A DNA stretch of 22,186 nucleotides. Origin: Tumidithrix helvetica PCC 7403. GTDB taxonomy: Bacteria; Cyanobacteriota; Cyanobacteriia; Pseudanabaenales; Pseudanabaenaceae. Below are positions 4,892 through 22,186 of this stretch, one piece after another. The position numbers and the translations under genes are program-made. The notes below the pieces were generated by a model. That model searched no databases and was not told the origin of the DNA. It saw only the letters and a list, made by a program, of their open reading frames with translations. Positions within the stretch are counted from its first letter, which is position 1. Each line of letters starts with the position of its first letter. Where the stretch lies: NCBI RefSeq assembly GCF_965232925.1, contig NZ_CBDDRA010000004.1, forward strand, positions 4,222 to 26,407, written 5' to 3'.

Positions 4892-4901
4892 CAAGACAAT
4901 C

Positions 4902-5440: not shown

Positions 5441-5460
5441 GGGGTGATATATATCACCCC
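5441..5460 (-). terminator. Perfect 20-bp palindrome GGGGTGATATATATCACCCC, probable terminator after the IMPDH gene
   Basis: Lies about 100 nt downstream of the stop at 5558. On the minus strand it is followed by TTCGTCTTCTAAAATT. It also separates guaB from the promoter region of the receiver/oxygenase block. A 9-bp inverted repeat (CGTCTTCTA 5351-5359 / TAGAAGACG 5430-5438) flanks it. Confidence 0.45.
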
Positions 5461-5557
5461 CAAAAACATCATATTTTGGTTAGCCAATGGATTAAGGGGC
5501 TAGCAGCATATTTATACGAATGCATCGCCCTTACACCTAACTTATCCCGAACTGACG

Positions 5558-6721
5558 CTACTTGCCCATACCAAGCTGCTGTGCCTTTTGATAGACTTTG
5601 CCCTCCGTGAGCAAAGATGGTGCGACTACAACTTCTACTTGCTGCATTTCCTTGAGGTTTTTTGCCCCCAAGGTTCCCATACTGGTTTTGAGTGCGCCCA
5701 GCAGATTATGCGTACCATCATCTAAGCCAGCAGGTCCGCGTAAAATTTGCTCGATCGAGCCTGTTGTGCCGACACGAATGCGCGTACCGCGAGGTAAAAC
5801 AGGGCTAGGTGTTGCCATACCCCAGTGAAAACCGCGCCCTGGAGCTTCTTGGGCTCTGGCGAAGGGCGAACCAATCATCACACCGTCAGCACCACAAGCG
5901 ATCGACTTACAAATGTCACCACCTGTGATTAAGCCCCCATCGGCAATAATCGGAATGTATTTCCCAGTTTGGTCGTAAAAATCATTTCTAGCCGCCGCAC
6001 AGTCGGCGATCGCCGTTGCTTGTGGTAGCCCAACGCCCAACACCCCTCTCGAAGTACAGGCAGCACCAGGTCCAATGCCAACCAAAATACCTGCGGCTCC
6101 AGCATTCAGCAGTTGTAAAGTCACTTCGTAAGTAACGCAGTTGCCCATCACTACAGGAATCGGCATCTTACGGCAAAACTCTTCTAAGTTTAGAGACTGT
6201 AAGCCTTCCGCAGAGATATGTGTGGTGGAAACAACCGTAGACTGAAGAAAGAACAGGTCACAGCCTGCTTCTGCTGCGAGTTGACCGTATTTTTCTGCAT
6301 TGGCGGGGGTGCTACTGGCACAGGCGATCGCGCCGCGTGCCTTAATCTCGCGAATCCGTTTCTGAATCAATTCTGGTTTGACTGGCTCGGCATAGAGTTG
6401 TTGCATCAAGCCGACAAATTCGGTCACACCAACCGAGGCAATCTTATCGAGAATTGGCGCAGTGTCTTCATAGCGAGTTTGGATGCCATCAAGGTTAATG
6501 ACGCCAAGGGCACCCAATTGCGATAGCAATACTGCCATCTCAACGTCAACAACACCATCCATGGCACTGGCAATAATCGGGATCTCCCGCTTGATGCCAC
6601 CGATCTCCCAATATGTATCAGCAACATTGGGATCGAGTGTAATGTTTCCTGGAACTAAAGCGATTTCGTCAATGCCATAGGCTCGCCGCGCCGTTTTACC
6701 ACGCCCAATATGAATATCCAC
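5558..6721 (-). CDS. guaB: IMP dehydrogenase family protein, short GuaB3-type without CBS domains
   Basis: N-terminus [35 protein letters not shown], catalytic-loop-like [43 protein letters not shown] start at 6721. 387 aa. Confidence 0.85.
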
Positions 6722-6756
6722 TGTTTTGCTTACCTATTTTTGAGTCAGATTAAGTC

Positions 6757-6786
6757 AGCCTAGCAGAGCAAAATGATCGCTGTCAA
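6757..6786 (-). promoter_or_regulatory. Candidate sigma70-type promoter for guaB
   Basis: On the minus strand: TTGACA (6786-6781), an 18-nt spacer, then TAGGCT (6762-6757), about 35 nt upstream of the GTG start. Pattern match only. Confidence 0.25.
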
Positions 6787-6951
6787 AACCTTCTCCCTTT
6801 AGCCTTGCTGCTAATTGGTTGCGGTCGATAAAGCCACTCTAAGGAAAGTATGGCTTTTGATGTTCTGCTAAATAGTGCATGAGTGGTGGACGCGCAAACG
6901 CGAGCGCAGCAGATTCAACATCACAAAAGACGATGCGTTTCACTTGTATTT

Positions 6952-8238
6952 CTAAACCAAAGCGAAATTGGAAACTGGAACGGCATGGCTTAAAAATTGT
7001 AGGGCTTCTGCCAAAAACGAGCTTGCCTGTAGGCTTGATGTTACATGCGCAGGAGAAGAAACGGTTAAAGATAGCCGATCGCCTAGGGTGGCAACCCCAA
7101 CAATCCGCTCTTGTTCCATCCCAGCCATCACAGCAGGACCATAAAGTGATTCGATTTGGAGTGAGCCAAACTGTTGCTCTAGGTTCAATCGTCCTAGATT
7201 GGTCACCAAGAGATCGTAGCCATACTGTTGCTGCATTCCCTGTACCATTACTTGTGCCGAGGGGAGCGTGGCGATCGCGGCTTGGCGGGGTGGGATGACC
7301 TCAAATAATCGGTGTAGCATCATTGCCTCAGATAATTGGGACTTGAACGATCGGGCAATCTCCCACAAGGTTGAATCAAATGGCAACTCGTGGTTGGTCA
7401 GCCCATAGGTGATATACAGTCCCACGGCTTCCCCCACAGTTGGCATCAGATGCGATCGCACGTTAATCGGTGACAGACATTTAAGCTGAGACGATGTAAC
7501 TCCCTTTTGACCTGCGAGAGCGAGTAAAAATGCGGCAGCGATCGCGCCATGCACGCTCGTTTTTTGCTCTCGGCAGCGATCGTTTAACGCCCAAGTCAAC
7601 TCAGCGGACAACAGGGCAGTGCGGATATGCGGACGCGGACGGGTAGACACCTCCGTACTATACCCAGATGACAAGGCTTCCTGCTGAGGAGTTCCTGCAG
7701 GGGGTGCTGACAATTTTTCGTCCATGCTTGGCACGACGGATTCGATTGGGAAAGACTCAGATAGCTCCCTTGTCATGGGTAAACGAACGACTGGCAAATC
7801 GGACTCTAATCCTTGCACAATATCGCGAATTAAATAGGCAACTGACATTCCATCTGCGATCGAGTGATGGCAGGTCACAATTAGCTCTGAGCAGATGTCG
7901 GATTGTAGCAGTACAACTCTAGCTAGGGGAGCGATCGCCCAATCAAAGGATTTCGACATTTCCACTTCTAGCTCTCGCTGCCACTGTAGGTCATCTTCTC
8001 GCAGAAGTACGCGTAGGGGAATTTCAGCATTCTGCTCGACAAACTTGGGTCGTCCAGACTTGTCCAGCTCAATGCGTACTCTTAGCAGGGGGTGCAGCTG
8101 TTGAACTCGTGTGAGGGACTGGCGAAGTCGATCGATACTAAATTTGTTACGGATTTTGGCACTGAGGGCAAAATGTAGGGGATGAACCTGGTCATACAAC
8201 CAAAATGAATGCTCAAATGCTCCAAGATGACGCTCCAT
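6952..8238 (-). CDS. Stand-alone condensation-domain / PapA5-like acyltransferase
   Basis: Catalytic HHxxxDG motif in VTCHHSIADGMSV (residues 124-130). About 428 aa, the size of a single C domain. No A or T domain is fused. Confidence 0.75.
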   Translation of the reverse strand: MERHLGAFEHSFWLYDQVHPLHFALSAKIRNKFSIDRLRQSLTRVQQLHPLLRVRIELDKSGRPKFVEQNAEIPLRVLLREDDLQWQRELEVEMSKSFDWAIAPLARVVLLQSDICSELIVTCHHSIADGMSVAYLIRDIVQGLESDLPVVRLPMTRELSESFPIESVVPSMDEKLSAPPAGTPQQEALSSGYSTEVSTRPRPHIRTALLSAELTWALNDRCREQKTSVHGAIAAAFLLALAGQKGVTSSQLKCLSPINVRSHLMPTVGEAVGLYITYGLTNHELPFDSTLWEIARSFKSQLSEAMMLHRLFEVIPPRQAAIATLPSAQVMVQGMQQQYGYDLLVTNLGRLNLEQQFGSLQIESLYGPAVMAGMEQERIVGVATLGDRLSLTVSSPAHVTSSLQASSFLAEALQFLSHAVPVSNFALV

Positions 8239-8405
8239 TGTTGACGCTCCTAATAACTAAAATTGAAAGCCCTGCGATCGCCACTGTTGCACCGACTCCA
8301 TCATGATCTCGGTGCAAACCTTGTTGTGTGGGCTTCTTAGTGGGATATACGCGGCTTCATTGGCAATGGATCTGTTGGAGGAAATTAACTTGTGCGTGGC
8401 GCTAC

Positions 8406-9626
8406 TTACGGCAAATTTGCAGGGGTTCTCGCAAAGTTCGCTGGATCTTGATCGCGCCGATGCTGGACGGGAATGGGCGTGCCCTGACCATTACCGTCCA
8501 AAGCAGCCGTTTTTTCCAAGGCTTCCCTTAGGCGTTTGGCGGCATAGATCGACATGTCACGGGGTACGCTGATGCGATCGCGTAAATAGCGCAGAGCAAT
8601 ATCAGAACCTTTTGGCGGTATACAGACTTCGCCTGTCATCATCAGGGTTAGTGCACAGCGCAGAGCTTCATCAACTAAGCGGTCATCGGCGGGGTTGACG
8701 CGAATAATATTCGTGCGATGTTTGAGCATCCGTTGCAATGCCTCAGTTCGGGAGGTTTCGGGCTCTGGGTAAGTCACATCTGGCAGACCATCCCAAGGAC
8801 CGCAATCCACTCGTTCCTTATTGAGTAGCGTTTGGGGTTCGCCATTTTCCCAACAGCCTCCCATTTGGGGGGGGAGATCGTGGGCGTGGGTATGAAAATC
8901 GCTCTGCGTGCCGCGATAGGTGGATCGGCTTTCCATCGCGGCAAACCAATCTGCCAAGCGAGGATTCTCTTCCCTGAGAGAATAGCCCTTGTAGTAGTAA
9001 AGACTGGCATTCATGCGTTCGACATAGGGTGTAAAGATGACATCCGCAGTCCCAAATTCTTCCAAAAAGTAGGGACCTGGGGTGCTGCCTAGGGCACTCT
9101 CAACCATCTCAACTACGCCGATAAATTGGTCGCGATGGCGTTGCTCTTCTTTGAGCGATCGGGTTGGTTGGCAAAGCCAAGAGCACCATGCTCGAAATAG
9201 CAATCGCTCTAGTCGTCTTAGGGGGAGCACAGTGGGGTCTTCCATACCGCGCCCCAAAATGCCAAACACCTGTTCTAGGGCGATCAAAATATCATCGCTT
9301 TCCTTGATAACGCGACCGTCTAGCGCGATCGCAGGGAGCATTCCCGATGGCACAATGCGCTTGTACCAGCTTTCTTTTTCGCCATAGCAAAACATCGTGA
9401 CTTTTTCGATGCGATAGGGGATCTGCTTTTCTTCTAGCCACAACCAGATTTTCTGACAGTAGGGGCACCAGGCATGGTTGTCACGATAAAGCGTCACCCG
9501 CGCATCAGATTCGGTATGACCAAATAGACGCAACCGCGCTTGGGCATTGGTGGGACCATTGACGGGATCGACTTGAAAATCTGTGAGTGCTTCTAGTTCT
9601 TGCCAGCTTAAGGGGGCGATCGTCAT
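8406..9626 (-). CDS. Glutathione S-transferase family protein with a glutaredoxin-like CPYC N-terminal domain
   Basis: [33 protein letters not shown] ... [18 protein letters not shown] is a thioredoxin-fold GSH-binding pattern. It is followed by a long helical C-terminal region. Confidence 0.65.
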
Positions 9627-9675
9627 GGGTATCCTTAATTAGTTCAAAGTTCTTGACTGAATCTCAATTTTAGAC

Positions 9676-9705
9676 AATAAAAAAGGATCTATAGATTTCA
9701 GATCC
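9676..9705 (-). terminator. Rho-independent terminator downstream of the EEP gene
   Basis: On the minus strand: stem AGGATCT, loop GAAATCTAT, stem AGATCCT, followed by TTTTTTATTG. It lies about 65 nt after the stop at 9770. Confidence 0.6.
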
Positions 9706-9769
9706 TGTGGGGCAGGTAGAGCGGTGATACGCCTAGATGAGGATTATTGGAATTGCCTGACCTGCATGA

Positions 9770-10735
9770 CTAATCGTCGTTTTTGTCCGAGCGAAAGATG
9801 GCTCTGACGGGGAGATGATCGGAAACCTTTTGGAAATAGTCGCGATCGCTAGCAAAGCCCAAATCTTTGACAGGATCGAGAATTTGAATCGATTGCGGCA
9901 AATACTCAGCTTCTGCGCCTTTAGCGCCTTTAGAGACGGCAATGTGATCGATCGCGCAGCCAGTCCCTTTATTTGTGAAACGGGGGCGACCGTTGGCATC
10001 GGTAGGCATGCCACGTCTTTTCAGGCAGTTATAGGTAGCATCGGTTTCAAGGCTGCGGGTGAGAAATAGGAGGGGTCCATCTTTCAATCCGCGATTTTGG
10101 GCTGCCCATGTCGGACTGTTAAAGTCACCCAAAACCACTAAATCGGGATCGGATTGGGTATTGCGCTCGTAGGCATCCACTTCAGCGCGCATCACATCGC
10201 TTTGTTGCTGACGAATCTCATCTGCGCCCTTATCGCCACTACCCTTTTGATGCACGACTACTAGGGTGAAATCAAAGCCATTGCCAACTTTGAGATAGGT
10301 AACTAGGGGCGATCGCAGGGTTCCCGTTACATTCACGCGATTCCACTCCGTTACCTTGTTGGCAGCGATCTGATCGCTGCGGTAAAACAGGGCAATTCTT
10401 TGCTTATTGCCTGACTCACCCAGTAAAAACTCCCAACGGTGAGATTTATTCAGGGCTGTTTTGAGCTTTTCGGCAGCGATCGCACTGACCTCCTGTAAGC
10501 CAATCGCATCAAAATTGCGATCGATAATTTTGGCGAGGGTTTCAACTTTTGCTGCCTCTTGCCCGTCAAAATTCTCGACATTGTAAGTCCCAATCCGAAT
10601 CTGGCTTGGTGCTGAGGACGAGCAGGCAGTCAGGCAAAGCACGCTCAGACAAAGCCCCAGCAAAAAACTCAGTCCATGCTGAAATATTTGGTGATGAGGA
10701 AAGCCTGCTGAGAGAAACCTTAAGCGTAATGACAT
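9770..10735 (-). CDS. Endonuclease/exonuclease/phosphatase (EEP) family lipoprotein
   Basis: Signal peptide with a lipobox (LSVLCLTACSS). EEP hallmarks: IRIGTYNVENF, IGLQEV, VVLGDFNS, IDHIAVS, SDHLPV. Confidence 0.8.
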   Translation of the reverse strand: MSLRLRFLSAGFPHHQIFQHGLSFLLGLCLSVLCLTACSSSAPSQIRIGTYNVENFDGQEAAKVETLAKIIDRNFDAIGLQEVSAIAAEKLKTALNKSHRWEFLLGESGNKQRIALFYRSDQIAANKVTEWNRVNVTGTLRSPLVTYLKVGNGFDFTLVVVHQKGSGDKGADEIRQQQSDVMRAEVDAYERNTQSDPDLVVLGDFNSPTWAAQNRGLKDGPLLFLTRSLETDATYNCLKRRGMPTDANGRPRFTNKGTGCAIDHIAVSKGAKGAEAEYLPQSIQILDPVKDLGFASDRDYFQKVSDHLPVRAIFRSDKNDD

Positions 10736-10753
10736 AAAACCCTAGATTGGCGG

Positions 10754-11083
10754 TTAAGATCCGCGTCCAAAGCGAACCTCGTATACCTCTTCTTCTTTTT
10801 CGGTGACAACTTCTAGATCTGATTTGGGGTAGGAAACGCAGAGTAAAACATACCCTTTGGCATCTAAAGCTTCACCCATGCCGCCTATGCCCATACCTTT
10901 ACTTTGATCGACTTCGCCAGAAATTACCTGAGCCGCGCAGGTCGTACAGACGCCTGCGTAGCAAGAGCAGGGTAGGTCTACGCCTTGCTCGTGGGCAGCG
11001 TCTAAAATCGATTGGGACTCAGGTACGGCGATCGTGTAAATTTGACCTTGATGGTTCAGCTTTACTGTGTAGGTCTGACTCAT
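10754..11083 (-). CDS. Plant-type [2Fe-2S] ferredoxin with an internal insertion and a C-terminal extension
   Basis: YTVKL..., CSCYAGVCTTCAAQVISGEVDQ, LLCVSYPKSDLEV. Compared with canonical PetF of about 98 aa, it has extra GMGIGGMGEAL and a VYEVRFGRGS tail. Confidence 0.85.
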   Translation of the reverse strand: MSQTYTVKLNHQGQIYTIAVPESQSILDAAHEQGVDLPCSCYAGVCTTCAAQVISGEVDQSKGMGIGGMGEALDAKGYVLLCVSYPKSDLEVVTEKEEEVYEVRFGRGS

Positions 11084-11226
11084 ACAGATAGTTTTTTAGA
11101 AAATTTTTCCTTTCAATTGTAGTGACTTCTGGGAAGCATCGATCGATCCCCACATCGCTTAAAAGAAATGGTAGCCTTAATAATTAGTTACACATCTCAG
11201 ATATTTCGTTGGGCGATCGACATACT

Positions 11227-12483
11227 ATGTTGGCAAATAGTTGGCAAATTCCAGATCTAGAGACCTTAAAGCGAGAATGGCGGGATGCCGATTTCGGTCT
11301 CTTACTTTTTCCGATTTTTCTAACTATTTTGGGTGGTATTGCCATCTACAGTGCTGATTTTAACGCCAAACAGACTAACTGGTGGCAGCATTGGGTCATG
11401 GGTGGTATTGGGTTGGGGATTTTGGTGGCGATCGCGCGATCGCATTACGATCGACTACTGCGCCTACACTGGATTACCTACGCCATTACCAACATTTCCC
11501 TCATTGCCGTACTGCTGGTGGGCACATCGGCGCTGGGCGCAGAACGATGGCTGAGTATTGGTGGCTTTAATCTCCAGCCCTCCGAGTTTGCCAAGGTCGG
11601 TGTAATTATTTCACTAGCGGCGGTGCTGCACAATCGCCCCATTCAGCACCCTATGGATATTTTAAAAGTGGTGTGGGTGGTGATTCCCCCTTGGATTTTG
11701 ATCTTTTTACAGCCAAATTTGGGTACAGCGCTTGTATTTGCGGCAATTACGATTGGTATGTTGTATTGGGCGGGTGCGAGTTTAGGTTGGCTAGTGCTGC
11801 TAGGGTCGCCGATTATTTCGGCAATTATTTTCACGATTTACGTACCTGTATGGATTGGTTGGGTAGCATTGATGGGCGTAACGGCTTGGTATTCTCTACC
11901 TTGGATTCGCACGATTAGTACGATCGTGGCGGTGGTTGTAAACTTGGTTGCCGCACAGGTGGGGCATATTCTCTGGGGGCTGCTGCATGATTATCAAAAG
12001 CAAAGGCTATTGCTGTTTTTAGATCCTAGCCAAGATCCTTTAGGCGGTGGCTATCACTTGATTCAGTCGCGGATTGCGATCGGGGCAGGGAAACTCTGGG
12101 GACAAGGTTTGATGAAGGGGACGCAGACGCAGCTCAACTTCATTCCTGAGCAGCATACCGATTTTATTTTCTCGGCGATCGGCGAAGAGTTTGGCTTTAT
12201 CGGTTGTATGTTTGTGCTGATTACGTTTCTGGGAATTTGTTGGCGGCTGTTGGCGATCGCGGTGAGCGCTAAAGATAACTTTGGTTCCTTAATTGCGATT
12301 GGCGTATTTTCGTTTATTTTGTTTCAAACCTTTGTCAACATCGGCATGAATATTGGTGTTGCGCCTGTGACGGGCATTCCGTTGCCTTGGTTGAGTTACG
12401 GTCGGTCGGCGATGATTGCCAATTTCATGGCGATCGGGATCGTCGAGTCCGTCGCTGCCCACCGTCGCACGATCAAATTTTAA
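11227..12483 (+). CDS. rodA: SEDS-family peptidoglycan glycosyltransferase, RodA-like (FtsW/RodA/SpoVE)
   Basis: Multi-TM protein with SEFAK, QSRIAIGAGKLWGQG, IPEQHTDFIFSAIGEEFGF and PLPWLSYGRSAM. I prefer ATG 11227 (MLANSWQ...) to the TTG at 11209 used by the track. Confidence 0.8.
   Translation: MLANSWQIPDLETLKREWRDADFGLLLFPIFLTILGGIAIYSADFNAKQTNWWQHWVMGGIGLGILVAIARSHYDRLLRLHWITYAITNISLIAVLLVGTSALGAERWLSIGGFNLQPSEFAKVGVIISLAAVLHNRPIQHPMDILKVVWVVIPPWILIFLQPNLGTALVFAAITIGMLYWAGASLGWLVLLGSPIISAIIFTIYVPVWIGWVALMGVTAWYSLPWIRTISTIVAVVVNLVAAQVGHILWGLLHDYQKQRLLLFLDPSQDPLGGGYHLIQSRIAIGAGKLWGQGLMKGTQTQLNFIPEQHTDFIFSAIGEEFGFIGCMFVLITFLGICWRLLAIAVSAKDNFGSLIAIGVFSFILFQTFVNIGMNIGVAPVTGIPLPWLSYGRSAMIANFMAIGIVESVAAHRRTIKF
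11428..11443. repeat. HIP1 (GCGATCGC) octamers, here two back to back; an example of about 40 copies across the window
   Basis: GCGATCGCGCGATCGC read directly. My manual scan found about 40 exact GCGATCGC sites in 22 kb, a signature of cyanobacterial genomes. Confidence 0.9.
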
Positions 12484-12611
12484 AAATATAGATTTTAAAA
12501 TTTACAGCAAATTCGCTTCAAAAGCACCAGAGGCAGAAATCCAAAACCCAATGCGGGGCTACGCCCTGTGACCCAGTCTCGTGGTGAATGGGCTCAAAAA
12601 CTGCTGTAGGT

Positions 12612-12827
12612 TTATAGCCACCCCATCCAACTTCTAAAATTTGCCCAAAAGCGATCGCCTAACCGCCAAGCTAGCAAACCACAAATGATGCCGCCGATTA
12701 AAAAGCCCAGCAAAGGCGATCCTGAATAGCTTATAGATCCAAAGAAACCGACAAGACCACCGATGAGAAAGCCGCAGCCAAATCGAACCATAAAGGTTTG
12801 CATGTCAAAGCGTTTTGGAGAAGACAT
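12612..12827 (-). CDS. Small glycine-zipper membrane protein (hypothetical, two predicted TM helices)
   Basis: 71-aa ORF with FGCGFLIGGLVGFFG and LLGFLIGGIICGLLAW hydrophobic segments. No family recognised. Confidence 0.45.
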   Translation of the reverse strand: MSSPKRFDMQTFMVRFGCGFLIGGLVGFFGSISYSGSPLLGFLIGGIICGLLAWRLGDRFWANFRSWMGWL

Positions 12828-12964
12828 GAGGATTTTCCTTGTTTCAGTAGAATGTCTTAGCGCAATCGAAATTTCACATACCTTACTTGATGTAAGCGTC
12901 TTTTGTCACTTTATCTAACCGATACCAATTCCAAGTAAATTTGCAAAAGATCTGGATTTGAGTT

Positions 12965-12985
12965 CCGCGCGTAGCGCGGTTTGTG
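12965..12985 (+). terminator. Orphan terminator-like hairpin CCGCGC-GTA-GCGCGG followed by TTTGTG
   Basis: Perfect 6-bp GC stem with a 3-nt loop and a T-rich tail on the + strand. There is no + strand ORF upstream, and it sits about 120 nt upstream of the SIMPL gene start. Confidence 0.3.
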
Positions 12986-13100
12986 AAAATGGTATGAATA
13001 GACAAAGATGGAATAGGCGCGATCGTTGAGATTTATTGCAGCCTGTAACTAACAACGCAGGTTTACGTCAAATGTTGCAGTAAGAATTTTCGTCAAAACT

Positions 13101-13865
13101 ATGCTGACAGAACCCAATGCCTCGCCTGCCAAACCAGCCTTTCAATTTCCGCAACTATTTAGTGGGATGCTCGCGCTGTCGATCGCCCTTCTTGGTAGTG
13201 CATATCTAGCTGGCAATGCCCTGCGATCGCTGCGATCCAATGATACTTTAACCGTGATAGGCTCTGCTACCCGCCCAATTCGTTCGGATTATGTAGTTTG
13301 GCGTAGCTCCGTTTCTAGCCAGCAAGCCACATTGTCTCAGGCATACCAAGAACTCAAACGCCATACAGAACGAGTACAGACTTATCTCAAAAGCAAAAAT
13401 ATCCCTAGCTCAGCGATTTCTATCAGTGCGATCGATACCCAACCCATTCCTGAAACCACGAGTAGCGGAGCCCAAACTGGAAAAACCCTAGCCTATCGAC
13501 TGGTTCAACGATTTGAGATTCGTTCCAATGCCGTTGATGACATTACTGCGATCGCCCGTTCCAGTACAGATTTAATTAACGAAGGGATTCCCTTTACTTC
13601 TGAACCACCTGAATATCTCTATACCCAACTCAGCCAGTTGCGCGTAGATATGATTTCTGAGGCGACAAAGGATGCTAAAGCTAGAGGCGATGCGATCGTC
13701 AATGTTTCTGGTAGTCGGCTTGGCACAATTCGTAAAGCGGAAACCGATGTGTTCCAAATTACGGCGCGACATTCTACGGAAGTCAGCAACAGTGGTTCGT
13801 ACAACACAACCTCTATCGATAAGGATATTCGGGCTGTGGTTGCGATTACCTTTGCAGTCGAATAA
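13101..13865 (+). CDS. SIMPL-domain (DUF541-like) periplasmic/secreted protein
   Basis: N-terminal hydrophobic anchor (LFSGMLALSIALLGSAYLAG). Then LTVIGSATRPIRSDYVVWRSSVS...AYQELKRHTERVQTYLKSKNIP...ISISAIDTQPI, which fits the SIMPL pattern. Confidence 0.6.
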   Translation: MLTEPNASPAKPAFQFPQLFSGMLALSIALLGSAYLAGNALRSLRSNDTLTVIGSATRPIRSDYVVWRSSVSSQQATLSQAYQELKRHTERVQTYLKSKNIPSSAISISAIDTQPIPETTSSGAQTGKTLAYRLVQRFEIRSNAVDDITAIARSSTDLINEGIPFTSEPPEYLYTQLSQLRVDMISEATKDAKARGDAIVNVSGSRLGTIRKAETDVFQITARHSTEVSNSGSYNTTSIDKDIRAVVAITFAVE

Positions 13866-13950
13866 GCGTTGGTTGATTGATGGTGTTTAGATTTACAACG
13901 TTGCAAATACGGCACTAAGATCGAAACTTGCTAGGATGCTATCGCAGAGC

Positions 13951-14296
13951 CTAGTTGAAATAACTGAATCGGACTTGTGAGGTGTCGATCGATGATAATC
14001 TCCGCCGATACCACGCTCAACTTAGATCTCGACGAACAAAAGCAACTTTACGCCAGTTTAGGGATTGCGGAATATTGGGTAATTGATGTGAAGGGAATGC
14101 GGCTCTTTTCTTTGCCTTTGGTTTGGGGGTAGCGGGTGTGTATGAGACCATCGAAGTTTCGCAGGTACTGAAGGGATTAGCGATCGCACTGATAGAAAAA
14201 CCCCTCGAACGCTTAGCCACAGAAACGAATACAGCCGTCTCGAATTGGTTAATGCAGCAGTTGCAAACAGAGTTCCCATCTGGCAAGAAAGATTAG
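13951..14296 (+). pseudogene. Decayed Uma2-family (DUF820) endonuclease remnant: C-terminal half only, split over at least three frames
   Basis: Frame fragments: LVEITESDL* (13951-13980); MIISADTTLNLDLDEQKQLYASLGIAEYWVIDVKGMRLFSL...* (13992-14132), which carries the family's K..Y...GI.EYWviD signature; then GVYETIEVSQVLKGLAIALIEKPLERL... to the stop at 14294-14296 in another frame. The N-terminal ~100 aa are missing. Confidence 0.5.
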
Positions 14297-14485
14297 TTAA
14301 TTGCAATGCGTAAAAACGAATAATAAAGGTACATTCATGTTGTTTGGCTTTGTTATATGGATATCTCAAACCCTTTCACAAGCAAGATTCTCAATGGGAT
14401 GAAAGCTTTATTGATGAGCCCTTGTCTATCAATTCTTCTAGAAAATCTGACTGAATGATACAACAAAACCCGAAGAATCACTTTT

Positions 14486-14938
14486 CTAAAGAAAAGTACC
14501 TAAATTTCTTAGCTCTTTCAGATTTTGACAAAACTGGATAAATCTCGATGTTGCATTTGGATTGCTTCCAATTAGTTGAGTTAGGGTATCTGCTAACATA
14601 TCTCGTCTCTTTTTCATAGCCAAGTAACTTTGACGTCCACCTTCAAAATTGGATTCAATCAACTCGTACGGAAATTGATCGAGTAGGAAGTTGAATATAT
14701 GCTCGGAAATTCGTAAATAAGCTAATCGCTTAAAGTATCGATTCATGTATTTAGACTCAGTCCGATGAACTTGAACCGAAGCTCTATGACCATCTCTGTA
14801 GGATTCATCTTGAATTACAAGACATCCTTTCTTATTGGGATTGTCTTCTTGACAAGAAAGGGTAATCTGTTCCAGAATTTCTAAATAAGTTTCTAAAAAT
14901 TCTTTGTAATTTCTAGCTTCCATAGTTGGTAATTCCAT
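14486..14938 (-). CDS. Hypothetical protein (orphan, in a visibly AT-rich segment)
   Basis: 150-aa ORF with no competing ORF. Predicted helical, no recognisable family. No HIP1 sites in or around it. Confidence 0.5.
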   Translation of the reverse strand: MELPTMEARNYKEFLETYLEILEQITLSCQEDNPNKKGCLVIQDESYRDGHRASVQVHRTESKYMNRYFKRLAYLRISEHIFNFLLDQFPYELIESNFEGGRQSYLAMKKRRDMLADTLTQLIGSNPNATSRFIQFCQNLKELRNLGTFL

Positions 14939-15051
14939 TAAGTTGTGGCTCTATACTTTCCACAACCATTGAAACCGATTGTATCAGTAATAATCATTTA
15001 CTGAAATCCTCTGTTTTAGATGCGATCTCGTTCGTTTTGAGCCAATTGACG

Positions 15052-16338
15052 CTACAAACCTGTAACTGGGGGTAAGTGGGGGGCAGAGATAAAGAAGCCC
15101 GTTAAAAAGCCCATAATCGTGGAGAAAGCTACCGAACCACCGCCGAGTTCGTAGGCTTCGGGCATCATCGTGCTGGCTAACATTGCCAAAATGGCTCCAC
15201 CTGACACAGCCTGAGCGAGAGCCACCACTAGCTCGGAAGTGTTTGCTGCTAGTATATTTCCCAAGAGCGCACAGAGTCCGCTCAGTACAATCACACCTGC
15301 CCAAAGCAAAATAATCCGAAGATTTTTTGTGCCTGCTTGCTTCATGCCAATCGAGCTAGAGAGCGCTTCAGGGAAATTAGAAATAAACACTGCCATCAAA
15401 AAAGACCAACCCACATGCCCTGGTTGCGCCGTCATCCCAATCACCGTGGATTCGGGAATGCCGTCAATTAACGTCCCTACCAAAATCGCCAAGGGAGCCG
15501 AACTTTTCACCAGCCCTTGAATCATTTTTTGTTCTTCGGAAGGGGAGAGATCGATTTCCACGCTATCGATCGCTTGCTGCCGCCACAGGTCTAAATTTTG
15601 CTCTGCCTCAGCTCTTGATGCCGTCGTCGATCGCAGTCGCTTGGCTAGGGCTCGACTGAGCGCATTGGAAATACTGGGGGATTTCAACAGCACATCATCG
15701 AAATGCTCTTGTTTGAGTTGATAGACATCCATATCTGTACTCGCCACCACTGTGGCCGATCGCGGTGCGCTGTTCAGCAATGCCATTTCACCAAATACCT
15801 CCCCTGCGCCAAGGGTCGTCATCACCTTTTCCCCTTTCTTCACCTCAGCTTCACCATGGATGATCATGTAGAATGAATCCCCCTGATCGCCTTCATGAAA
15901 GAGGGTTTCACCTTCCTTGACCGTGATTGGTTTCAGCAAAGGTACGATCGCTTGGGCTTCTGAAGGCGGCAAATTTTGCATCACCTCGACATGGGCAATG
16001 CGATCGAGCACATCACCCGTTTCTTCTTGGCGGTGTTCAAACAAATAGCGGCGGCGAGAAGAAGCTTTACGCAAAAAGCCCCCTTTATCATCGACAAAGC
16101 GGGTAATACCAATAAATAGCCCCCCACCAATCAAAAAACCGATCAACAGGGGTAAAAAGCCACTTTCTCGATAAGCACTAATGGTGGTTTCAAAGGCAAG
16201 CGCAGACAGTAACGTACCACTGCCAAATGCCATAATTGCGGCGGATAGGACTCGGCTCGGTTGCCAAACAATGCCCAGCAACGCACCCAATCCCGAACTC
16301 AACGCTGCCAGTAATCCCTGAAGAAAAGCATCTAGCAT
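15052..16338 (-). CDS. ZIP-like (ZupT/GufA-like) membrane protein with a cyclic-nucleotide-binding domain inserted in the central cytoplasmic loop
   Basis: About 3 N-terminal TM helices. A cNMP-binding beta-roll (FHEGDQGDSFYMIIHGEAEV ... GEVFGEMALLNSAPRSATVVA). C-terminal TM bundle with ZIP-like motifs LIDGIPESTVIG and AVFISNFPEALSSS. Confidence 0.7.
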   Translation of the reverse strand: MLDAFLQGLLAALSSGLGALLGIVWQPSRVLSAAIMAFGSGTLLSALAFETTISAYRESGFLPLLIGFLIGGGLFIGITRFVDDKGGFLRKASSRRRYLFEHRQEETGDVLDRIAHVEVMQNLPPSEAQAIVPLLKPITVKEGETLFHEGDQGDSFYMIIHGEAEVKKGEKVMTTLGAGEVFGEMALLNSAPRSATVVASTDMDVYQLKQEHFDDVLLKSPSISNALSRALAKRLRSTTASRAEAEQNLDLWRQQAIDSVEIDLSPSEEQKMIQGLVKSSAPLAILVGTLIDGIPESTVIGMTAQPGHVGWSFLMAVFISNFPEALSSSIGMKQAGTKNLRIILLWAGVIVLSGLCALLGNILAANTSELVVALAQAVSGGAILAMLASTMMPEAYELGGGSVAFSTIMGFLTGFFISAPHLPPVTGL

Positions 16339-16453
16339 AGGTATCTACTTAGAACCTAGATATTCTATCGCGAGTCCTATCGGAGTTTCTGTTCGTTACG
16401 TCTTAAAATTATCCGCGATCGCCAGTTTATTTTCATTAAAATTCCTATGAATC

Positions 16454-16483
16454 GGGCATCTAGTGCGATCGCACTAGATGCCC
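16454..16483 (-). terminator. Perfect 30-bp palindrome GGGCATCTAGTGCGATCGCACTAGATGCCC centred on a HIP1 site; probable terminator after the A-T-TE gene
   Basis: Read directly. The 15-bp arms are exactly complementary. It lies about 58 nt downstream of the stop at 16541 and upstream of the ZIP-cNMP gene start (16338). The T-tract on the minus strand is weak (GATTCATAGGAATTTTAATG). Confidence 0.45.
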
Positions 16484-16540
16484 AAAATACTGTTCTTGGC
16501 GAATTATATGGAGTTTGACAGCCCAAACAATATTTTGCGA

Positions 16541-19150
16541 TCAAACATGGGCATAGAGTTTTGGACGATATCGGCTTTGGGCTCGCTCTAAACAGAGATT
16601 AAAATCTTTTGCCAATGCTGCGACATGGGGTTCCTGAAACATCAATGGATGAGATCCAGGTACATCAAACATTTCCAGTGGTTCAGAAGTCCTTTTGCTC
16701 CAAGATTTATAATGCGCCACGATCGCCCATTCTTGGTAAACCTCGCGATCGGTAGGTTGAAAGAAGGTGATTTTTCCCGAATAAACCGATGGGTTATAGA
16801 TCTTCGTCGCCTCTCGATGCGCCGCAATCAGCTCTGAGTTTCGTAAAGGATTGGCAATAAACTCAATTGCAGTAGATTTTTGAAAATACTTAGCGACGCG
16901 ATCGTATAAATATTGGAAGCCAAACTGAAGCGTATAACGGAAGTGACGGGCAACCTTTTGATGCAATCGAAAAGGCTGGCGATCGCCCTCGGCAAAGGTA
17001 TCAAATAACGCCAACAGCGCTACCTCTTCATGATTTCGGTGTAGTTGTTGGGCAATCTCAAAGGCAACAAGTCCACCAAACGAATATCCCATCAGGTAAT
17101 AAGGTCCCTCTGGTTGAATTGTCCGAATCTCGGCGAGATAGCGTTCAGCCATGGCTTCTACCGTACTTAGGTGTGGCTCTTGTTTGTTATACCCCTGCGC
17201 GACTAAACCGTAAAAGGGCTGATCGGAACTTAAGTGATTGGCAAACTGGCGATAGCACATGGCTCCGCCGTAAACATCATGAATTCCAAACAACGGGGGC
17301 TTACTACCATCTGGCTCGATCGCAAGGAGCAGAGAGTGCGTGTCAAAGGTTGATGTTTCTTGTTGCGCGAGAATATTGGCAAGATTTGCGATCGTCAGCG
17401 TTTTGAAGATGGTGTCAGGAGCCAAAACGGTATTAAAAGCTTTTTCAATTTGAGTTAGTAAGCCTACTGCCTGTAGCGAATCTCCTCCTAAAGCAAAGAA
17501 ATTATCGTCAATACCAATCTGTTCGACGCCCAACACATCAACCCAAATTGCGGTTAAGGTTTTCTCAACGGAGGTCTTGGGGGCTACAAATTCCTGCTTG
17601 AGATGAGATGCCAAGACTTGAGCTAGCCCAATTCGCTGGACTTTTCCATTTGTACTCTTTGGAAGGTCGTCTAGGAATACAATTTGACTGGGAACCTTAA
17701 AGCTGACTAATTGTGTAGAGGCAAATTCTCGGATTTCTTCGACTGTAGCCGATATGTAAGGCTTTAAAACCACGGCAGCGGCAATGTCTTCACCCAAGCG
17801 AGGATGGGGTACGGCAAACGCCACTGCTTGGGCAATCTTTGGATGTTTTAACAGCACTTGGTCTATTTCGTTAGGAGCAACTTTTTCACTACCGCGATTG
17901 ATTAATTCCTTAATGCGACCGATCAAAAAGAGATAACCATCCTCATCCAGATAGCCCCGATCGCCTGTCCTAAACCAACCATTTGTAAACCCTTGACTAT
18001 TTGCCGTTGGATTTGCTTCATAGCCGTTAAAGACATTGGCTCCTTGCGTGACAATTTCTCCCGCTTGATGGGGCTGTAAGAAGTTACCAGTTTCATCCAC
18101 GATCGCAATTTTGGTATTGACGGCTCTACCGACCGAGCCAACTTTGCTCTGAAGTGGTGGAAGGGAATGACAGGCAATCTGATAAGCTTCTGTCAATCCA
18201 TAGGCTTGCGTAAAGGTTGCACTAAAAGTGTTTTCTAACTCATAAATCAAATCGGAAGAGATGGCAGCAGAAGATGAACGGATTAATCGCAACGAGCACT
18301 GACGCAGATCTCGATCTTGCTGTTTTGCCGCAGCGATCGCGGCTTGATGCAAGGTGGGGACAGATGTATACCAAGTCGGTTGGAACTCTTCTAGCCAATC
18401 AAAAAAGTGATTTGGGTTAAACCCAGGTGTGGAAACGACACTCGCACCAGCACCGATCGATGACAATAAGGCTCCCAATAGTCCATGACTATAAATGAGA
18501 GGCATGACGATCAGACCGCGATCGCTCGGTTGCAAGTTCAATGCCAAGCGAATATTCCTTGCGGCGCTACAGAGATTGAGATGGGTCAGTGGAACTATTT
18601 TGGGCTGTCCTGTCGTACCCGATGTATGTAAAATCAGAGCTTGGTCATTGGGTTCTATAATATGCGGCTCAGGTGCTGGTTGACTAGCTTCTCCAGCTAA
18701 TAGAAAACAGCCTGCATCTCGATCTTCTAAAGGAATTAGTTCAATGATTTTAAGTTGGCAAGCCTTAGCAGCCTCTCTAGCAGAGGGGTTTAGCCCTTCT
18801 CTAACAATCAGGAACTTAATCTTAAAAGTGGTAAAATATCGTTCGAATTCCGCTTGGGTAAATCGAGGGTTTAGGGGAGCGCTGACCGCACAAGAGCTAA
18901 TAGCAAGGAAGGCAACTGCCATTTCTGGACTCTCTGGAAGCACAAGGGCAACGCGATCGCTTCTACCCACACCCATTCTTCTGAGTATCTCTATGGTTCG
19001 ATCGATCTGAATCTTCAAGCTTCCATAGGACAGAGGATCTCGAGACGGAGCAAGTATAGCCGTTGCTTCTGGTGTTTTTTTATCCCAAATAGCCACCATT
19101 TCATAGATAGTTGAGAACTCTGCATTAGGATTGGCGTTCAATGTGTTCAT
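16541..19150 (-). CDS. NRPS-like tridomain enzyme: adenylation (ANL) - thiolation (PCP) - thioesterase
   Basis: A domain: LHTSGTTGQPKIV, YGLTEA, GEIVTQGANVFNGY, WFRTGDRGYLDEDGYLFLIGRIKELINRGSEKV, PKSTNGKVQR. PCP: FFALGGDSLQAV (Ser558, codon about 17477-17479). TE: GYSFGGLVAFEIA (GxSxG, Ser690). Confidence 0.9.
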   Translation of the reverse strand: MNTLNANPNAEFSTIYEMVAIWDKKTPEATAILAPSRDPLSYGSLKIQIDRTIEILRRMGVGRSDRVALVLPESPEMAVAFLAISSCAVSAPLNPRFTQAEFERYFTTFKIKFLIVREGLNPSAREAAKACQLKIIELIPLEDRDAGCFLLAGEASQPAPEPHIIEPNDQALILHTSGTTGQPKIVPLTHLNLCSAARNIRLALNLQPSDRGLIVMPLIYSHGLLGALLSSIGAGASVVSTPGFNPNHFFDWLEEFQPTWYTSVPTLHQAAIAAAKQQDRDLRQCSLRLIRSSSAAISSDLIYELENTFSATFTQAYGLTEAYQIACHSLPPLQSKVGSVGRAVNTKIAIVDETGNFLQPHQAGEIVTQGANVFNGYEANPTANSQGFTNGWFRTGDRGYLDEDGYLFLIGRIKELINRGSEKVAPNEIDQVLLKHPKIAQAVAFAVPHPRLGEDIAAAVVLKPYISATVEEIREFASTQLVSFKVPSQIVFLDDLPKSTNGKVQRIGLAQVLASHLKQEFVAPKTSVEKTLTAIWVDVLGVEQIGIDDNFFALGGDSLQAVGLLTQIEKAFNTVLAPDTIFKTLTIANLANILAQQETSTFDTHSLLLAIEPDGSKPPLFGIHDVYGGAMCYRQFANHLSSDQPFYGLVAQGYNKQEPHLSTVEAMAERYLAEIRTIQPEGPYYLMGYSFGGLVAFEIAQQLHRNHEEVALLALFDTFAEGDRQPFRLHQKVARHFRYTLQFGFQYLYDRVAKYFQKSTAIEFIANPLRNSELIAAHREATKIYNPSVYSGKITFFQPTDREVYQEWAIVAHYKSWSKRTSEPLEMFDVPGSHPLMFQEPHVAALAKDFNLCLERAQSRYRPKLYAHV

Positions 19151-19665: not shown

Positions 19666-20097
19666 ATGGAAGAGTTGCTAGAATTGCGGACTTTGCTGAT
19701 GGGTGGGCATATCACCGATGCTCTGTTGTTAGTCGATGAGATGACTGAGATGAGTAAGGATGACAAGCTGAATAAAATTTATAGCTTTGCCAAGGTCTTG
19801 CTGCTCCATCTCATTAAACAACAGGCAGAAAATCGCACTACGAGGTCGTGGGATCTGTCGATCAAAAATGCGGTTAGAGAAATTCAGCGGACTAATCAAC
19901 GGCGTAAGGCTAAAGGGAATTATTGCGAACCTTTTGAATTGCGCGAGACGATAGAAGATGCCTATGACATCGCGTTAGACGCGGCGGCGGGTGAGGTTTT
20001 TGAGGGGAGATATGAGGCTGATGCTCTGGGGGCGATGGTCGATCGCGATCGCACGATCGATTATGCGATCGCTTTAATTTCTGGAGATGATGCGTGA
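19666..20097 (+). CDS. DUF29-like helical protein (tentative)
   Basis: VDEMTEMSKDDK...LLLHLIKQQAENRTTRSWDLSIKNAVREIQ...EDAYDIALDAAAGE resembles the DUF29 pattern (EEIESLGK...LLGHLLKW.YQP..RSRSW..TI...R..I...AY..A...AA.ET). It lacks the usual N-terminal YxxDFYxW segment. Confidence 0.5.
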   Translation: MEELLELRTLLMGGHITDALLLVDEMTEMSKDDKLNKIYSFAKVLLLHLIKQQAENRTTRSWDLSIKNAVREIQRTNQRRKAKGNYCEPFELRETIEDAYDIALDAAAGEVFEGRYEADALGAMVDRDRTIDYAIALISGDDA

Positions 20098-20158: not shown

Positions 20159-20578
20159 ATGGCAGATCCAGTAACGCTCACAGCCGCAGGTATAGCCGCT
20201 TTAGCTTTTGACAAAGCTTTTGGAAAAACAATCGAAAAATTGACTGAGGGGGCGATCGCGAAAATCACCCCTTTGCTTACGAGTTTGCAACAAAAGATTC
20301 TTGCTCGGTTTAAGGGAAATCCTAAAGCTGAAGATGCTGTCTTAAAAGAAGATGTGGAACGAGTCGCTGCTTATTTGCAAGTGATGATGGATAACGATCC
20401 TAAGTTTGCTCAAGAGGTCGAACAACTTGCTACGGAAATTCATCAAGAGATTAATATTGGTGAATTTGAAGATAACAGCAGTATGACGCAAATCAATCGA
20501 GATCAGAGTACTAACTATCAGACTAAGACAGGGTTGGGAAATACTAACTATTTTGGTGGTACGCATCATCATAGTTGA
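20159..20578 (+). CDS. 139-aa helical protein with a hydrophobic first helix and an Asn/Gln/Gly/Thr-rich tail; possible detached N-terminal effector/adaptor module of the downstream STAND NTPase
   Basis: MADPVTLTAAGIAALAFDKAFGKTIEKL..., a helical middle, and the tail QINRDQSTNYQTKTGLGNTNYFGGTHHHS. The TGA stop at 20576-20578 is in frame with the NB-ARC coding frame that follows. Confidence 0.6.
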   Translation: MADPVTLTAAGIAALAFDKAFGKTIEKLTEGAIAKITPLLTSLQQKILARFKGNPKAEDAVLKEDVERVAAYLQVMMDNDPKFAQEVEQLATEIHQEINIGEFEDNSSMTQINRDQSTNYQTKTGLGNTNYFGGTHHHS

Positions 20579-20641
20579 CCAGAGCCGTCTGAGTCGGGGG
20601 CGCGGACAAAGTTAGAGGCTCCCAAGATAATTCCTAGTAAC

Positions 20642-22186
20642 GTGCGACAGGGTTCCAAAAACTTTGTAGGGCGAGAGGAAGAACTTGCAGAAATTCACGC
20701 AACACTGCAAGAGGGGCAGGGTGTCATCGTCTGTGCGGTGGAGGGTATGGGTGGTGTCGGTAAGACCGAACTTGCCCTGCAATATGCGACTCGCTATCAA
20801 CAGGAATATGTGGCGCGGTACTGGTTGTCCTTGCGAGAGATGGGATTGGCTCAGGCATTGGTGACTATGGCTAGTCCTTATCTTGCCTTACCCGAATCGA
20901 TGCAGTCAGCTAGCCTAGACGAACAAGCGGCATGGTATTGGCAAAACTGGTTGCCTGAGTCTGGCAAGTTATTGGTGATTCTTGATGATGTGCCAAATGC
21001 GGAGAGCATTCCTGATCTGGCGATGCCCATCGATCCGCGTGTGCGGGTGTTGGTGACGACGAGAGAACGGGAATTGAATGTGGGTTTTGAGTCTGTGCCT
21101 CTGGATGTGCTGTCAGAGGGCAAAGCACTGGAACTGTTAAGGAAAATAGTTGGCGCGGCAAAGGTAGATAAAGAACTTGTCACCGTCAAGGAGATTTGCG
21201 AAACTCTGGGCTATTTGCCTTTGGGTATAGAGTTAATCGGTGAATATCTAAGCAAAAATCGCTTTCTGACTTTTGCCAAGTTACAAGAAAGGTTAAACCT
21301 AGCTGATGAATCAATTGCGCGGGAACGCAAGCATAGGTTTTATGCCCATCGTGGTGTGGAAGCAGCAATCCAACTGAGTTGGGATGATATCAGTACTGGC
21401 TCTCAGAGAGTGGCGATGTTGTTAGGACTGTTTGCTCCTGTTGAGATTTTGTGGGAGTTGGTGGAAGCAATTGGAGCAAATGCCGAAATTACGGAAGCAG
21501 AACTCAATGAGGCTAGAGGACAGCTAGACAGTTTGCATTTAATTCAACCAATTGATGAAGAATGTGACTTTTATAAGATTCATACCCTAGTCCGCGAGTT
21601 CTTTCGTGCCAAGCTATTGAAAGCAGAAGAAAATTGTCAGTTTCGGCAAGCATTTGTAACCAGTTTGCTGAGAATTGCTAAACAGATACCCCAATCACCA
21701 ACGCAAGATCTGATTGCAAGGGTAGCTCCTGCTATTCCTCATTTAGATTTGTTGAGTCGCGAAATGCTGGGTGATATTCTCCATCTTGAAGAAGACTTGT
21801 CTTGGGCATTTATAGGAATTGCGTGGTTTTACGAAGGGCAAGGAATCTATGCACTGGCGGAAGATCCATGTCAAAGATGGTTGAAAGCTACCAAAGAACT
21901 GTTAGGTGATCGCCATCCCGATGTCGCGACCAGTATCAACAACCTCGCATTGCTGTGCTATTCGCAAGGAAAATATGAAGAAGCGGAACCACTACTTAAA
22001 CAAGCAGTGGCGCTGTTTCAAGAACTGTTTGGTAATCGCCATCCCAATGTCGCGATGAGTCTCAACAACCTCGCAGCGCTGTATCGTTCACAGGGTAGAT
22101 ACGAAGAAGCGGAATCACTGTTTAAACAAGCGCTGGCACTGTGGCAAGAACTGTTAGGTGATCGCCATCCCGATGTCGCGACCAGT
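20642..22186 (+). CDS. NB-ARC (STAND, NLR-like) NTPase with C-terminal TPR repeats, 3' end beyond the window, start uncertain
   Basis: Absent from the ORF track because there is no stop in the window. The frame is open from 20579 to 22186. FVGREEELAEIH, Walker A GMGGVGKTELA (20744 onward), Walker B LLVILDDV, RVLVTTRE, GLPL-like GYLPLGIELIG, then 42-aa TPRs (HPDVATSINNLALLCYSQGKYEEAEPLLKQA...). The first canonical start after the upstream TGA is GTG 20642. There is no in-frame ATG before the P-loop Met at 20747. Confidence 0.85.
   Translation, partial: MRQGSKNFVGREEELAEIHATLQEGQGVIVCAVEGMGGVGKTELALQYATRYQQEYVARYWLSLREMGLAQALVTMASPYLALPESMQSASLDEQAAWYWQNWLPESGKLLVILDDVPNAESIPDLAMPIDPRVRVLVTTRERELNVGFESVPLDVLSEGKALELLRKIVGAAKVDKELVTVKEICETLGYLPLGIELIGEYLSKNRFLTFAKLQERLNLADESIARERKHRFYAHRGVEAAIQLSWDDISTGSQRVAMLLGLFAPVEILWELVEAIGANAEITEAELNEARGQLDSLHLIQPIDEECDFYKIHTLVREFFRAKLLKAEENCQFRQAFVTSLLRIAKQIPQSPTQDLIARVAPAIPHLDLLSREMLGDILHLEEDLSWAFIGIAWFYEGQGIYALAEDPCQRWLKATKELLGDRHPDVATSINNLALLCYSQGKYEEAEPLLKQAVALFQELFGNRHPNVAMSLNNLAALYRSQGRYEEAESLFKQALALWQELLGDRHPDVATS
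21896..22186 (+). repeat. 126-bp (42-codon) tandem TPR coding repeats with near-identical DNA
   Basis: GAACTGTTAGGTGATCGCCATCCCGATGTCGCGACCAGT occurs identically at 21896-21934 and 22148-22186, 252 bp apart. The intermediate unit at 22022-22060 differs at a few bases. Confidence 0.85.

Follow-up and report, generated by a model that had tools for sequence, protein, structure and literature searches.

A candidate stop-codon readthrough cassette joins an amyloid-signalling effector to its NLR sensor in Tumidithrix helvetica and other cyanobacteria

The last 2 kb of a 22,186-nucleotide stretch of DNA from the cyanobacterium Tumidithrix helvetica PCC 7403 (contig NZ_CBDDRA010000004.1; the whole stretch is hereafter called the window) carry an open reading frame (ORF) for a 139-amino-acid protein and, behind a single TGA-C stop and in the same frame, the sequence of an NLR-like sensor with NB-ARC and tetratricopeptide repeat (TPR) domains. 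Programmed stop-codon readthrough is in our assessment the best explanation of this locus, with a probability of about three in four judged from sequence comparisons. Three features typical of such recoding are found together at the junction, namely a conserved stop context, an in-frame downstream ORF that has no start of its own, and a covarying RNA structure beginning some 8 nucleotides (nt) after the stop. The locus is best explained as a Pseudanabaena-like amyloid-signalling NLR system that would be written as one recoded frame. We also think it likely that the signal is a portable cyanobacterial recoding cassette made up of UGA-C, an 8-nt spacer, an H-type pseudoknot, and a linker, through which one frame would encode an amyloid-activated executioner together with its own NLR sensor, and which has been combined with varied effectors and sensors. 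An earlier note on this DNA, made from the letters alone, had pointed out the interrupted frame; the pseudoknot 8 nt after the stop, the Bell/BASS9 identity of the small protein, and the proposed replacement of a sensor-borne motif copy by readthrough go beyond it.

In the window, the small ORF (ORF1) runs from ATG 20159 to TGA 20576–20578, and the base following the stop (position +4, window 20579) is C. The frame of ORF1 then remains open for another 536 codons, up to the window end, and in full-length relatives 757 (L001) or 827 (L009) codons follow the stop. Pfam recognises an NB-ARC domain at residues 33–269 after the stop and TPR repeats further on (E-values in Table 1). The window letters and Pfam together bear out the earlier observation that the 139-amino-acid ORF and the NB-ARC frame share one phase and are split by a single TGA-C. 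Genetic-code reassignment of TGA was ruled out because TGA terminates other genes of the window; it ends five other ORFs, where the +4 base is T, A or G and never C. Frameshifting was also rejected, as a slippery site is lacking and the downstream ORF continues in the zero frame.

A locus scan using one genome per species (alignment A3) returned 79 loci, 76 of which were analysed. At 39 of these the stop of the small ORF is TGA-C (TAG-C at L074 and L075), and directly behind it the frame continues, staying open for 96 to 938 codons or to the contig end, mostly for hundreds of codons and into NB-ARC/TPR sequence. The 39 loci are spread over Nostocales, Leptolyngbyales, Coleofasciculaceae, and Phormidesmis, among other taxa; their small proteins share as little as ~38% identity, and the loci fall into at least 10 groups at 60% identity and 15 at 70%. 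Culturable carriers include Tolypothrix tenuis PCC 7101 and Scytonema sp. HK-05. In all, 44 cyanobacterial loci with 40 distinct junctions are of the readthrough type, drawn from independent isolates, metagenome-assembled genomes, and metagenomes and ranging from Pseudanabaena to Nostocales. The stop is UGA in 38 of the distinct junctions and UAG in two, the +4 base is C in all 40, and UGA-CUA occurs in 29. Conservation extends through the spacer behind the stop (+5 U in 36/40, +8 A and +9 G each in 38/40, +11 C in 40/40), in contrast to positions −9 to −2 before the stop, which are variable. The window's TGA, +4 C, and frame are found identically in the 94% relative (L001–L008 and L009). The linker between the stop and FVGR, the residues that open the NB-ARC region, is 23, 24, 28 or 32 codons long, so that insertions and deletions have added or removed whole codons and kept the frame. 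From FVGR to the P-loop the sequence behaves as coding DNA, with 226 third-position differences versus 117 and 56.

Some database proteins proved to be artefacts of translation under genetic code 4, in which UGA is read as Trp. One protein, P0116, was considered as a Trp sense variant and rejected, as its DNA (L088, 488–1648) has TGA and the gene call used code 4; L088 is instead a further readthrough-type locus. P0158 is probably also a code-4 entry, in which an in-frame TGA read as Trp mimics a fused orthologue.

The sensor frame has no usable start codon. Ahead of the P-loop region of the window, the only in-frame ATG, GTG or TTG is GTG 20642, as the earlier note had stated; a further in-frame GTG at 20738 lies three codons 5′ of the P-loop Met (ATG 20747). 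GTG 20642 is GTA in L001 and L007, and the GTG chosen by the gene caller in these two relatives is in turn GTA in the window, at 20666. Translation from GTG 20642 would moreover truncate the conserved IPSNVRQGSKNF segment. At most NB-ARC loci the first in-frame ATG, GTG or TTG is found only beyond FVGR, where it coincides with a conserved Leu (codon 38) or with the P-loop Met, and at L058, L077, L079, and L080 none precedes the P-loop Met.

Behind the stop lies an H-type pseudoknot in which a 5-bp stem (S1) starts at +12 and a GGGA-type loop stretch pairs with UCCC ~9 nt past the stem (S2). Across 38 distinct junctions, 87.6% of cells are paired versus at most 49% with the partner slid, and the covariation score was reached by none of 500 shuffles. 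Compensatory pair types occur in both stems (S1, UA18/CG15 and CG16/GC10/UA4; S2, GC23/CG6 and AU23/CG4). The strict S1+S2 pattern is present at 31 of the 39 readthrough-type loci and at none of the 37 others, and in 1–3% of shuffled or random controls. When a covariance model was trained on the junctions, it recovered the window at 49 bits as well as loci on which it had not been trained (L001, L088, L091, L092, a second site in L045, and L089). In the window pseudoknot, the loop and the third loop are each one codon longer than the consensus; S2 coordinates in the window were set by hand because MAFFT misplaces a 3-nt insertion there. Rfam gave no credible match across the junction and holds no such family.

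The 139-amino-acid protein belongs to a family with 59 word-indexed homologues of 86–162 amino acids and 633 profile matches, mostly ~140 amino acids long and cyanobacterial. The N-terminal consensus of the family is MEPVTLTAA.IATLAF; its counterpart in the window, MADPVTLTAAGIAALAF, has an acidic residue at position 3 and then a hydrophobic helix. Bell and Hell domains carry an N-terminal ‘MEPIS’ motif composed of an acidic residue and a hydrophobic helix (bioRxiv 10.1101/2024.11.07.622273). An AlphaFold2 model depicts a helical bundle at residues 9–104, mostly with a predicted local distance difference test score of ~80–90, followed at residues 105–139 by beta-prone sequence or beta strands of low confidence. 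Foldseek comparison of this model with the PDB returned nothing significant, only generic helical bundles, and a Pfam scan of the protein found no matching model. PADLOC gave no match for the protein and no defence-system model, with a weak generic TPR match (2.6e-5) at the locus.

The tail of the protein, MTQINRDQSTNYQTKTGLGNTNYF, aligns with family tails of the form MTQxNxDNAKGWQTKVEGGTAYI. Table S2 of Dyrka et al. (bioRxiv 10.1101/2020.01.06.895854) assigns this motif to class bass_09 of the bacterial amyloid signalling sequences (BASS), a class that includes a Pseudanabaena pair. The tail sub-type of the window recurs in L051 as a canonical pair whose NLR starts with MNDQTNYGGTNYQVNTGENNTNIF. 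A second tail type in the family, QNVYGG...APVIQGGSGHxITF, is absent from the motif table of Dyrka et al. 2020. Because of its Bell-like N-terminus, the helical model, and the bass_09 match of its tail, the 139-amino-acid protein reads as the effector partner in a Bell/BASS-NLR system of amyloid signalling rather than as an orphaned N-terminal domain. It is not the generic effector or adaptor domain of the earlier note; it appears Bell-like and bears a BASS9 motif. As predicted from the sequence, the free protein would surely be the main product of the locus.

Much of what defines a Bell/BASS-NLR pair is present in the window, including a helical N-terminal domain of ~100 residues, a C-terminal BASS motif, and an adjoining collinear NB-ARC/TPR protein. 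The matching motif copy at the NLR N-terminus is missing. Almost all of the 37 loci without the pseudoknot are textbook pairs in which the NLR starts at an ATG of its own and bears a separate motif copy, placed at the extreme N-terminus or behind a helical extension of ~50 amino acids (for example L028, MNQSNQDNAKGWQTQVEGG...PPNNIPYRGVANFVGR). When the tail was locally aligned with the first 150 post-stop residues, at least 31 of these 37 loci scored 53–142; of the rest, two scored 36–41, two did not rise above background, and two lack a long downstream ORF. The readthrough-type sensors stay at background with 16–36, and the window scores 22. The segment that follows the motif is homologous between the canonical and readthrough-type classes, and sensors without their own motif and their own start always lie in frame behind the stop-pseudoknot cassette. 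The paralogous NLRs P0207, P0208, P0211, P0212, and P0213 share the IPSNVRQGSKNFVGREEEL...GMGGVGKTELALQYA segment of the window, and all paralogous NLRs bearing IPSNVRQGSKNFVGREEEL have an amyloid motif upstream of it; in P0207 this motif matches the BASS9 string of Pseudanabaena sp. SR411 exactly. This either/or layout suggests that readthrough would substitute for the sensor-side motif copy that canonical Bell/BASS-NLR pairs need.

The cassette also occurs in other combinations. An exact-pattern scan of metagenome contigs gave two loci. In L045 (8784–10423) a canonical Bell-BASS9/NLR pair stands beside a second system (L045b), composed of a divergent Bell-like ORF (MDPITVATIALM...) with the tail TVINQGKLAEKIGFVFQGGYNPVKIEKFEL, followed by TGA-C, a pseudoknot matched by the covariance model at 9165–9227, and an in-frame NB-ARC sequence. 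L091 (1599–2587, minus strand) and L092 (3726–3760, minus strand) couple an alpha/beta-hydrolase-like effector (assigned through DUF676, 21.8 bits) and a Q/N-rich tail to the TGA-pseudoknot cassette and NB-ARC, so that use of the cassette is not limited to Bell domains. Elsewhere the modules after the cassette are NACHT, a Ser/Thr kinase, NB-ARC with APAF1_C, or a transmembrane segment with TPR, and other cassettes precede several ORFs of 137–243 amino acids without a known domain (such varied downstream parts were found at L012, L040, L072, L082, L010, L011, L067, L078, and L085).

Natural fusions exist as well. P0135 and P0138 are continuous Bell-BASS9-NB-ARC-TPR proteins, the latter verified on DNA. 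The P0138 gene (L093) is flanked by a PNP_UDP/TIR gene on one side and a TIR gene on the other, in what looks like a defence island. In L089 (1501–2682, junction ~1947–2004) GAG replaces the stop while most of the pseudoknot sequence is kept, and L090 is listed likewise; the downstream part of L089 is a transmembrane segment with a GUN4 domain, not an NLR. In the comparison of continuous and interrupted relatives that the earlier note had put forward, the stop is conserved at 44 loci, P0135 and P0138 are continuous, and L089 has GAG.

We propose that the majority of ribosomes would stop at the UGA and release free 139-amino-acid effector, while a minority would decode the UGA with a near-cognate tRNA and stay in frame. 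The readthrough product would be a Bell-BASS9-linker-NB-ARC-TPR sensor whose motif is identical to that of the effector. Once triggered, the TPR/NB-ARC sensor would oligomerise, its clustered motifs would nucleate an amyloid fold, and this fold would template the free effector pool, so that Bell domains become active, damage the membrane, and bring about the death of the infected cell. Besides supplying the sensor with its motif, readthrough would fix a low sensor-to-effector ratio, and its efficiency might also vary with infection or stress, thereby adjusting the alarm threshold. We infer the occurrence and frequency of readthrough, the identity of the amino acid inserted at the stop, amyloid templating, and a role in cell death or anti-phage defence; sensor nucleation and the cell-death steps are modelled on HET-S/NWD2, BASS pairs, and Bab/Agp. 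The comparative data favour the option, raised in the earlier note, of a leaky UGA-C that would yield much free module and a little fusion.

Several observations count against this proposal. No earlier example of a chromosomal gene in bacteria with pseudoknot-stimulated readthrough is known to us. The stems are short (S1 only 5 bp, S2 4–6 bp), and the nested minimum-free-energy fold of the window favours another hairpin. That alternative hairpin (GACCAGA...UCUG.GUC, window 20577–20595) takes in the GA of the stop and is not conserved at other loci. We relied on the comparative pairs because nested minimum-free-energy folding cannot represent a pseudoknot. Eight readthrough-type loci have a weakened pseudoknot, five (L010, L011, L052, L078, and L085) have short downstream ORFs or no recognisable domain, and some of these weak-pseudoknot or domain-less loci may be decaying. 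The pseudoknot sits in translated sequence, so peptide constraint could explain part of the conservation; the ‘conserved peptide’ LQSPERERAKLNPP may equally merely mirror RNA constraint. From the pseudoknot to FVGR, the third-position bias of the linker is modest (87 differences versus 53 and 58). The window itself retains GTG 20642, with ATA and ATT codons just upstream. Finally, the Bell assignment draws on sequence features rather than on structural similarity.

Two separately translated genes would be an alternative account, with the NLR starting at GTG 20642, at a near-cognate codon or by termination-reinitiation; the conserved RNA structure would then regulate coupling, the stability of the mRNA or translation of the NLR and would not stimulate readthrough. 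Gene callers do report two genes, the GTG is present in the window, and initiation in cyanobacteria often proceeds without a Shine-Dalgarno sequence. Bell/BASS and NLR genes, moreover, normally form a tightly linked two-gene pair (Dyrka 2020). Against this, candidate starts are not kept even between 94% relatives, several loci have no ATG, GTG or TTG before the P-loop Met, and a start at GTG 20642 cuts into the conserved IPSNVRQGSKNF segment. Separate translation also leaves unexplained why all 44 junctions keep the frame, run open directly behind the stop, and differ only by whole codons, and a sensor made in this way would lack an amyloid motif through which to engage its effector. We therefore regard this account as unlikely. 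The split pair that the earlier note had offered as one option is retained in part, in that the free 139-amino-acid protein would be the main product, but a sensor that lacks a conserved start (GTG 20642 is GTA in L001) does not fit it.

Decoding of the UGA as selenocysteine or another special residue is very improbable. Bacterial selenocysteine insertion elements do consist of a UGA with a stem-loop a few nucleotides downstream, and the hairpin here could resemble one. However, L074 and L075 carry UAG with the structure intact, one natural sense variant (L089) has Glu (GAG) and not Cys, the site falls in a variable linker and not in an active site, and Rfam is without a match. More improbable still, to the point that we set it aside, is that a nonsense mutation broke a once-continuous Bell-NLR gene, or that the stop stems from faulty sequencing or assembly. 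Continuous Bell-BASS9-NLR fusions do exist (P0135 and P0138), but the same stop and context recur in 44 loci of independent origin, and the covarying RNA structure is absent from the continuous fusions and from the canonical pairs. The suggestion of a recent nonsense mutation or assembly error in the earlier note is rejected on the same grounds, the stop, +4 C, and frame being kept in 44 loci.

Programmed readthrough would set the window apart from the systems it otherwise resembles. Bell/BASS-NLR pairs, known from filamentous bacteria, and specifically those of the BASS9 class (bioRxiv 10.1101/2020.01.06.895854), share with it a helical protein of ~140 amino acids with a Q/N/G-rich motif of ~25 amino acids, an adjacent collinear NB-ARC/TPR gene, and a cyanobacterial host. 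They carry a second motif at the NLR N-terminus, whereas the window NLR has neither motif nor conserved start and its frame is joined to that of the effector through a stop and a pseudoknot. The screen of Dyrka et al. 2020 needed paired motifs, and the readthrough-type class would therefore go unscored; neither a stop codon nor readthrough is mentioned in the text of that preprint or of bioRxiv 10.1101/2024.11.07.622273. In HET-S/NWD2 of Podospora anserina and Bab/Agp of E. coli, as in our proposal, a short amyloid motif of the sensor acts as template for the same motif of a helical executioner that targets membranes. These executioners (HeLo and Babybell) act in regulated cell death or abortive infection (bioRxiv 10.1101/2024.11.07.622273). 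Unlike in the window, sensor and executioner are separate genes there, with a motif copy in each. The predicted readthrough product resembles ‘all-in-one’ Bell-NLR fusions and plant coiled-coil NLR resistosomes in combining a helical executioner domain, NB-ARC, and repeats. In the window, unlike the all-in-one fusions, the fusion would be a minor product beside a large pool of free executioner, with the amyloid motif between the parts. No PADLOC model for known anti-phage STAND systems (Avs and others) matched.

As a recoding signal, the closest likeness is to the gag-pol junction of Moloney murine leukaemia virus (MoMLV; Beier-Grimm type III), where a stop, an 8-nt spacer, and an H-type pseudoknot from +12 give an abundant short product and a rare C-terminally extended one (PMC13517186). 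MoMLV uses eRF1, UAG-G, and a 50-nt pseudoknot to make a viral polyprotein; the window differs in having a bacterial ribosome with release factors RF2/RF1, UGA-C, a pseudoknot of ~37 nt, and a putative cellular immune gene. The alphavirus nsP3/nsP4 junction shares the UGA-C(UA) context, and some of its natural variants have a sense codon, as does L089. At the coat/A1 junction of phage Q-beta, bacterial ribosomes read UGA at a few per cent, and bacterial UGA readthrough of 1–6% has been reported (PMC13517186). Alphavirus and Q-beta signals differ from the window in having extended stem-loops or no structure and in being viral. The finding is thus probably the known Bell/BASS-NLR type of amyloid signalling, rewired through what would be a virus-like recoding signal.

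Table 1 Features of the candidate recoded locus (window coordinates).
Feature	Position	Strand	Basis
ORF1, 139-amino-acid putative effector (Bell-like domain and BASS9-like tail), TGA included	20159..20578	+	Homologues, family profile
Bell-like alpha-helical domain, residues 1–104, N-terminus MADPVTLTAAGIAALAF	20159..20470	+	AlphaFold2 model, family consensus
Q/N/G-rich C-terminal tail EDNSSMTQINRDQSTNYQTKTGLGNTNYFGGTHHHS, BASS9-type amyloid-signalling motif	20471..20575	+	Alignment to bass_09
Putative recoded stop, UGA and +4 C	20576..20579	+	Junction comparison
8-nt spacer CCAGAGCC, family consensus CUANAGYC	20579..20586	+	Junction comparison
H-type pseudoknot	20587..20623	+	Covariation
Pseudoknot S1, GUCUG paired with CGGAC	20587–20591 with 20603–20607	+	Comparative pairing
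Pseudoknot S2, GGGGGC paired with GCUCCC	20596–20601 with 20618–20623	+	Comparative pairing, read by hand
In-frame linker PEPSESGARTKLEAPKIIPSNVRQGSKNFVGR, first 32 post-stop codons, without conserved start	20579..20674	+	
GTG, sole canonical in-frame start candidate before the NB-ARC domain, not conserved	20642..20644	+	
NB-ARC NTPase domain, P-loop GMGGVGKT at 20744–20767	20675..21385	+	Pfam PF00931, E 1e-18
TPR sensor repeats, cut by the window end	21794..22186	+	Pfam TPR_12, E 7e-45; TPR_10, E 7e-33

The nearest genome match is the Pseudanabaena metagenome-assembled genome L009, with 94% protein identity. In the metagenome relatives L001–L008, the 94%-identical module is flanked upstream by a HigB-like toxin with a helix-turn-helix gene and downstream by XisH/XisI, and in the window its upstream neighbour is a DUF29 gene (comparison region 19666–20097). 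Because the neighbourhoods differ between L001–L008 and the window, we suggest that the two ORFs move as a unit. HIP1 sites (GCGATCGC) number 41 in the 22.2 kb, the last at 20252–20259; the final 1.93 kb has none, with ~3.6 expected (Poisson P ~0.03). The count behind the HIP1-free NB-ARC/TPR region of the earlier note is correct, and as an argument for a foreign origin of the locus the gap is weak. Two of the HIP1 sites adjoin each other at 11428–11443. The chromosomal surroundings at 324–19150 are cyanobacterial and include a stand-alone nonribosomal peptide synthetase-like gene with adenylation, thiolation, and thioesterase (A-T-TE) domains (16541–19150, minus strand), a gene for a condensation-domain protein (6952–8238, minus strand), and FtsW/RodA (11209–12483). 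Two Rieske oxygenases are also encoded within the window.

A literature search on readthrough in connection with NB-ARC, Bell, amyloid signalling or cyanobacteria turned up no report, with most subscription journals outside the search. To our knowledge, programmed readthrough in bacteria is almost confined to phage Q-beta and a few isolated genes. If our reading is correct, a family-wide, structure-stimulated form of stop-codon readthrough would be added to bacterial genetics; such readthrough, programmed by a pseudoknot, would be a first for cellular genes of bacteria and new to their immune genes, and the retroviral solution of a stop, 8 nt, and a pseudoknot would have arisen independently in bacteria. 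Amyloid-signalling NLR pathways would have a second route, in which a single motif copy is common to effector and sensor, so that a perfect templating match would be guaranteed and the sensor-to-effector ratio would be set at translation. Hundreds of NLR genes in carrier genomes would then probably be annotated with arbitrary internal starts.

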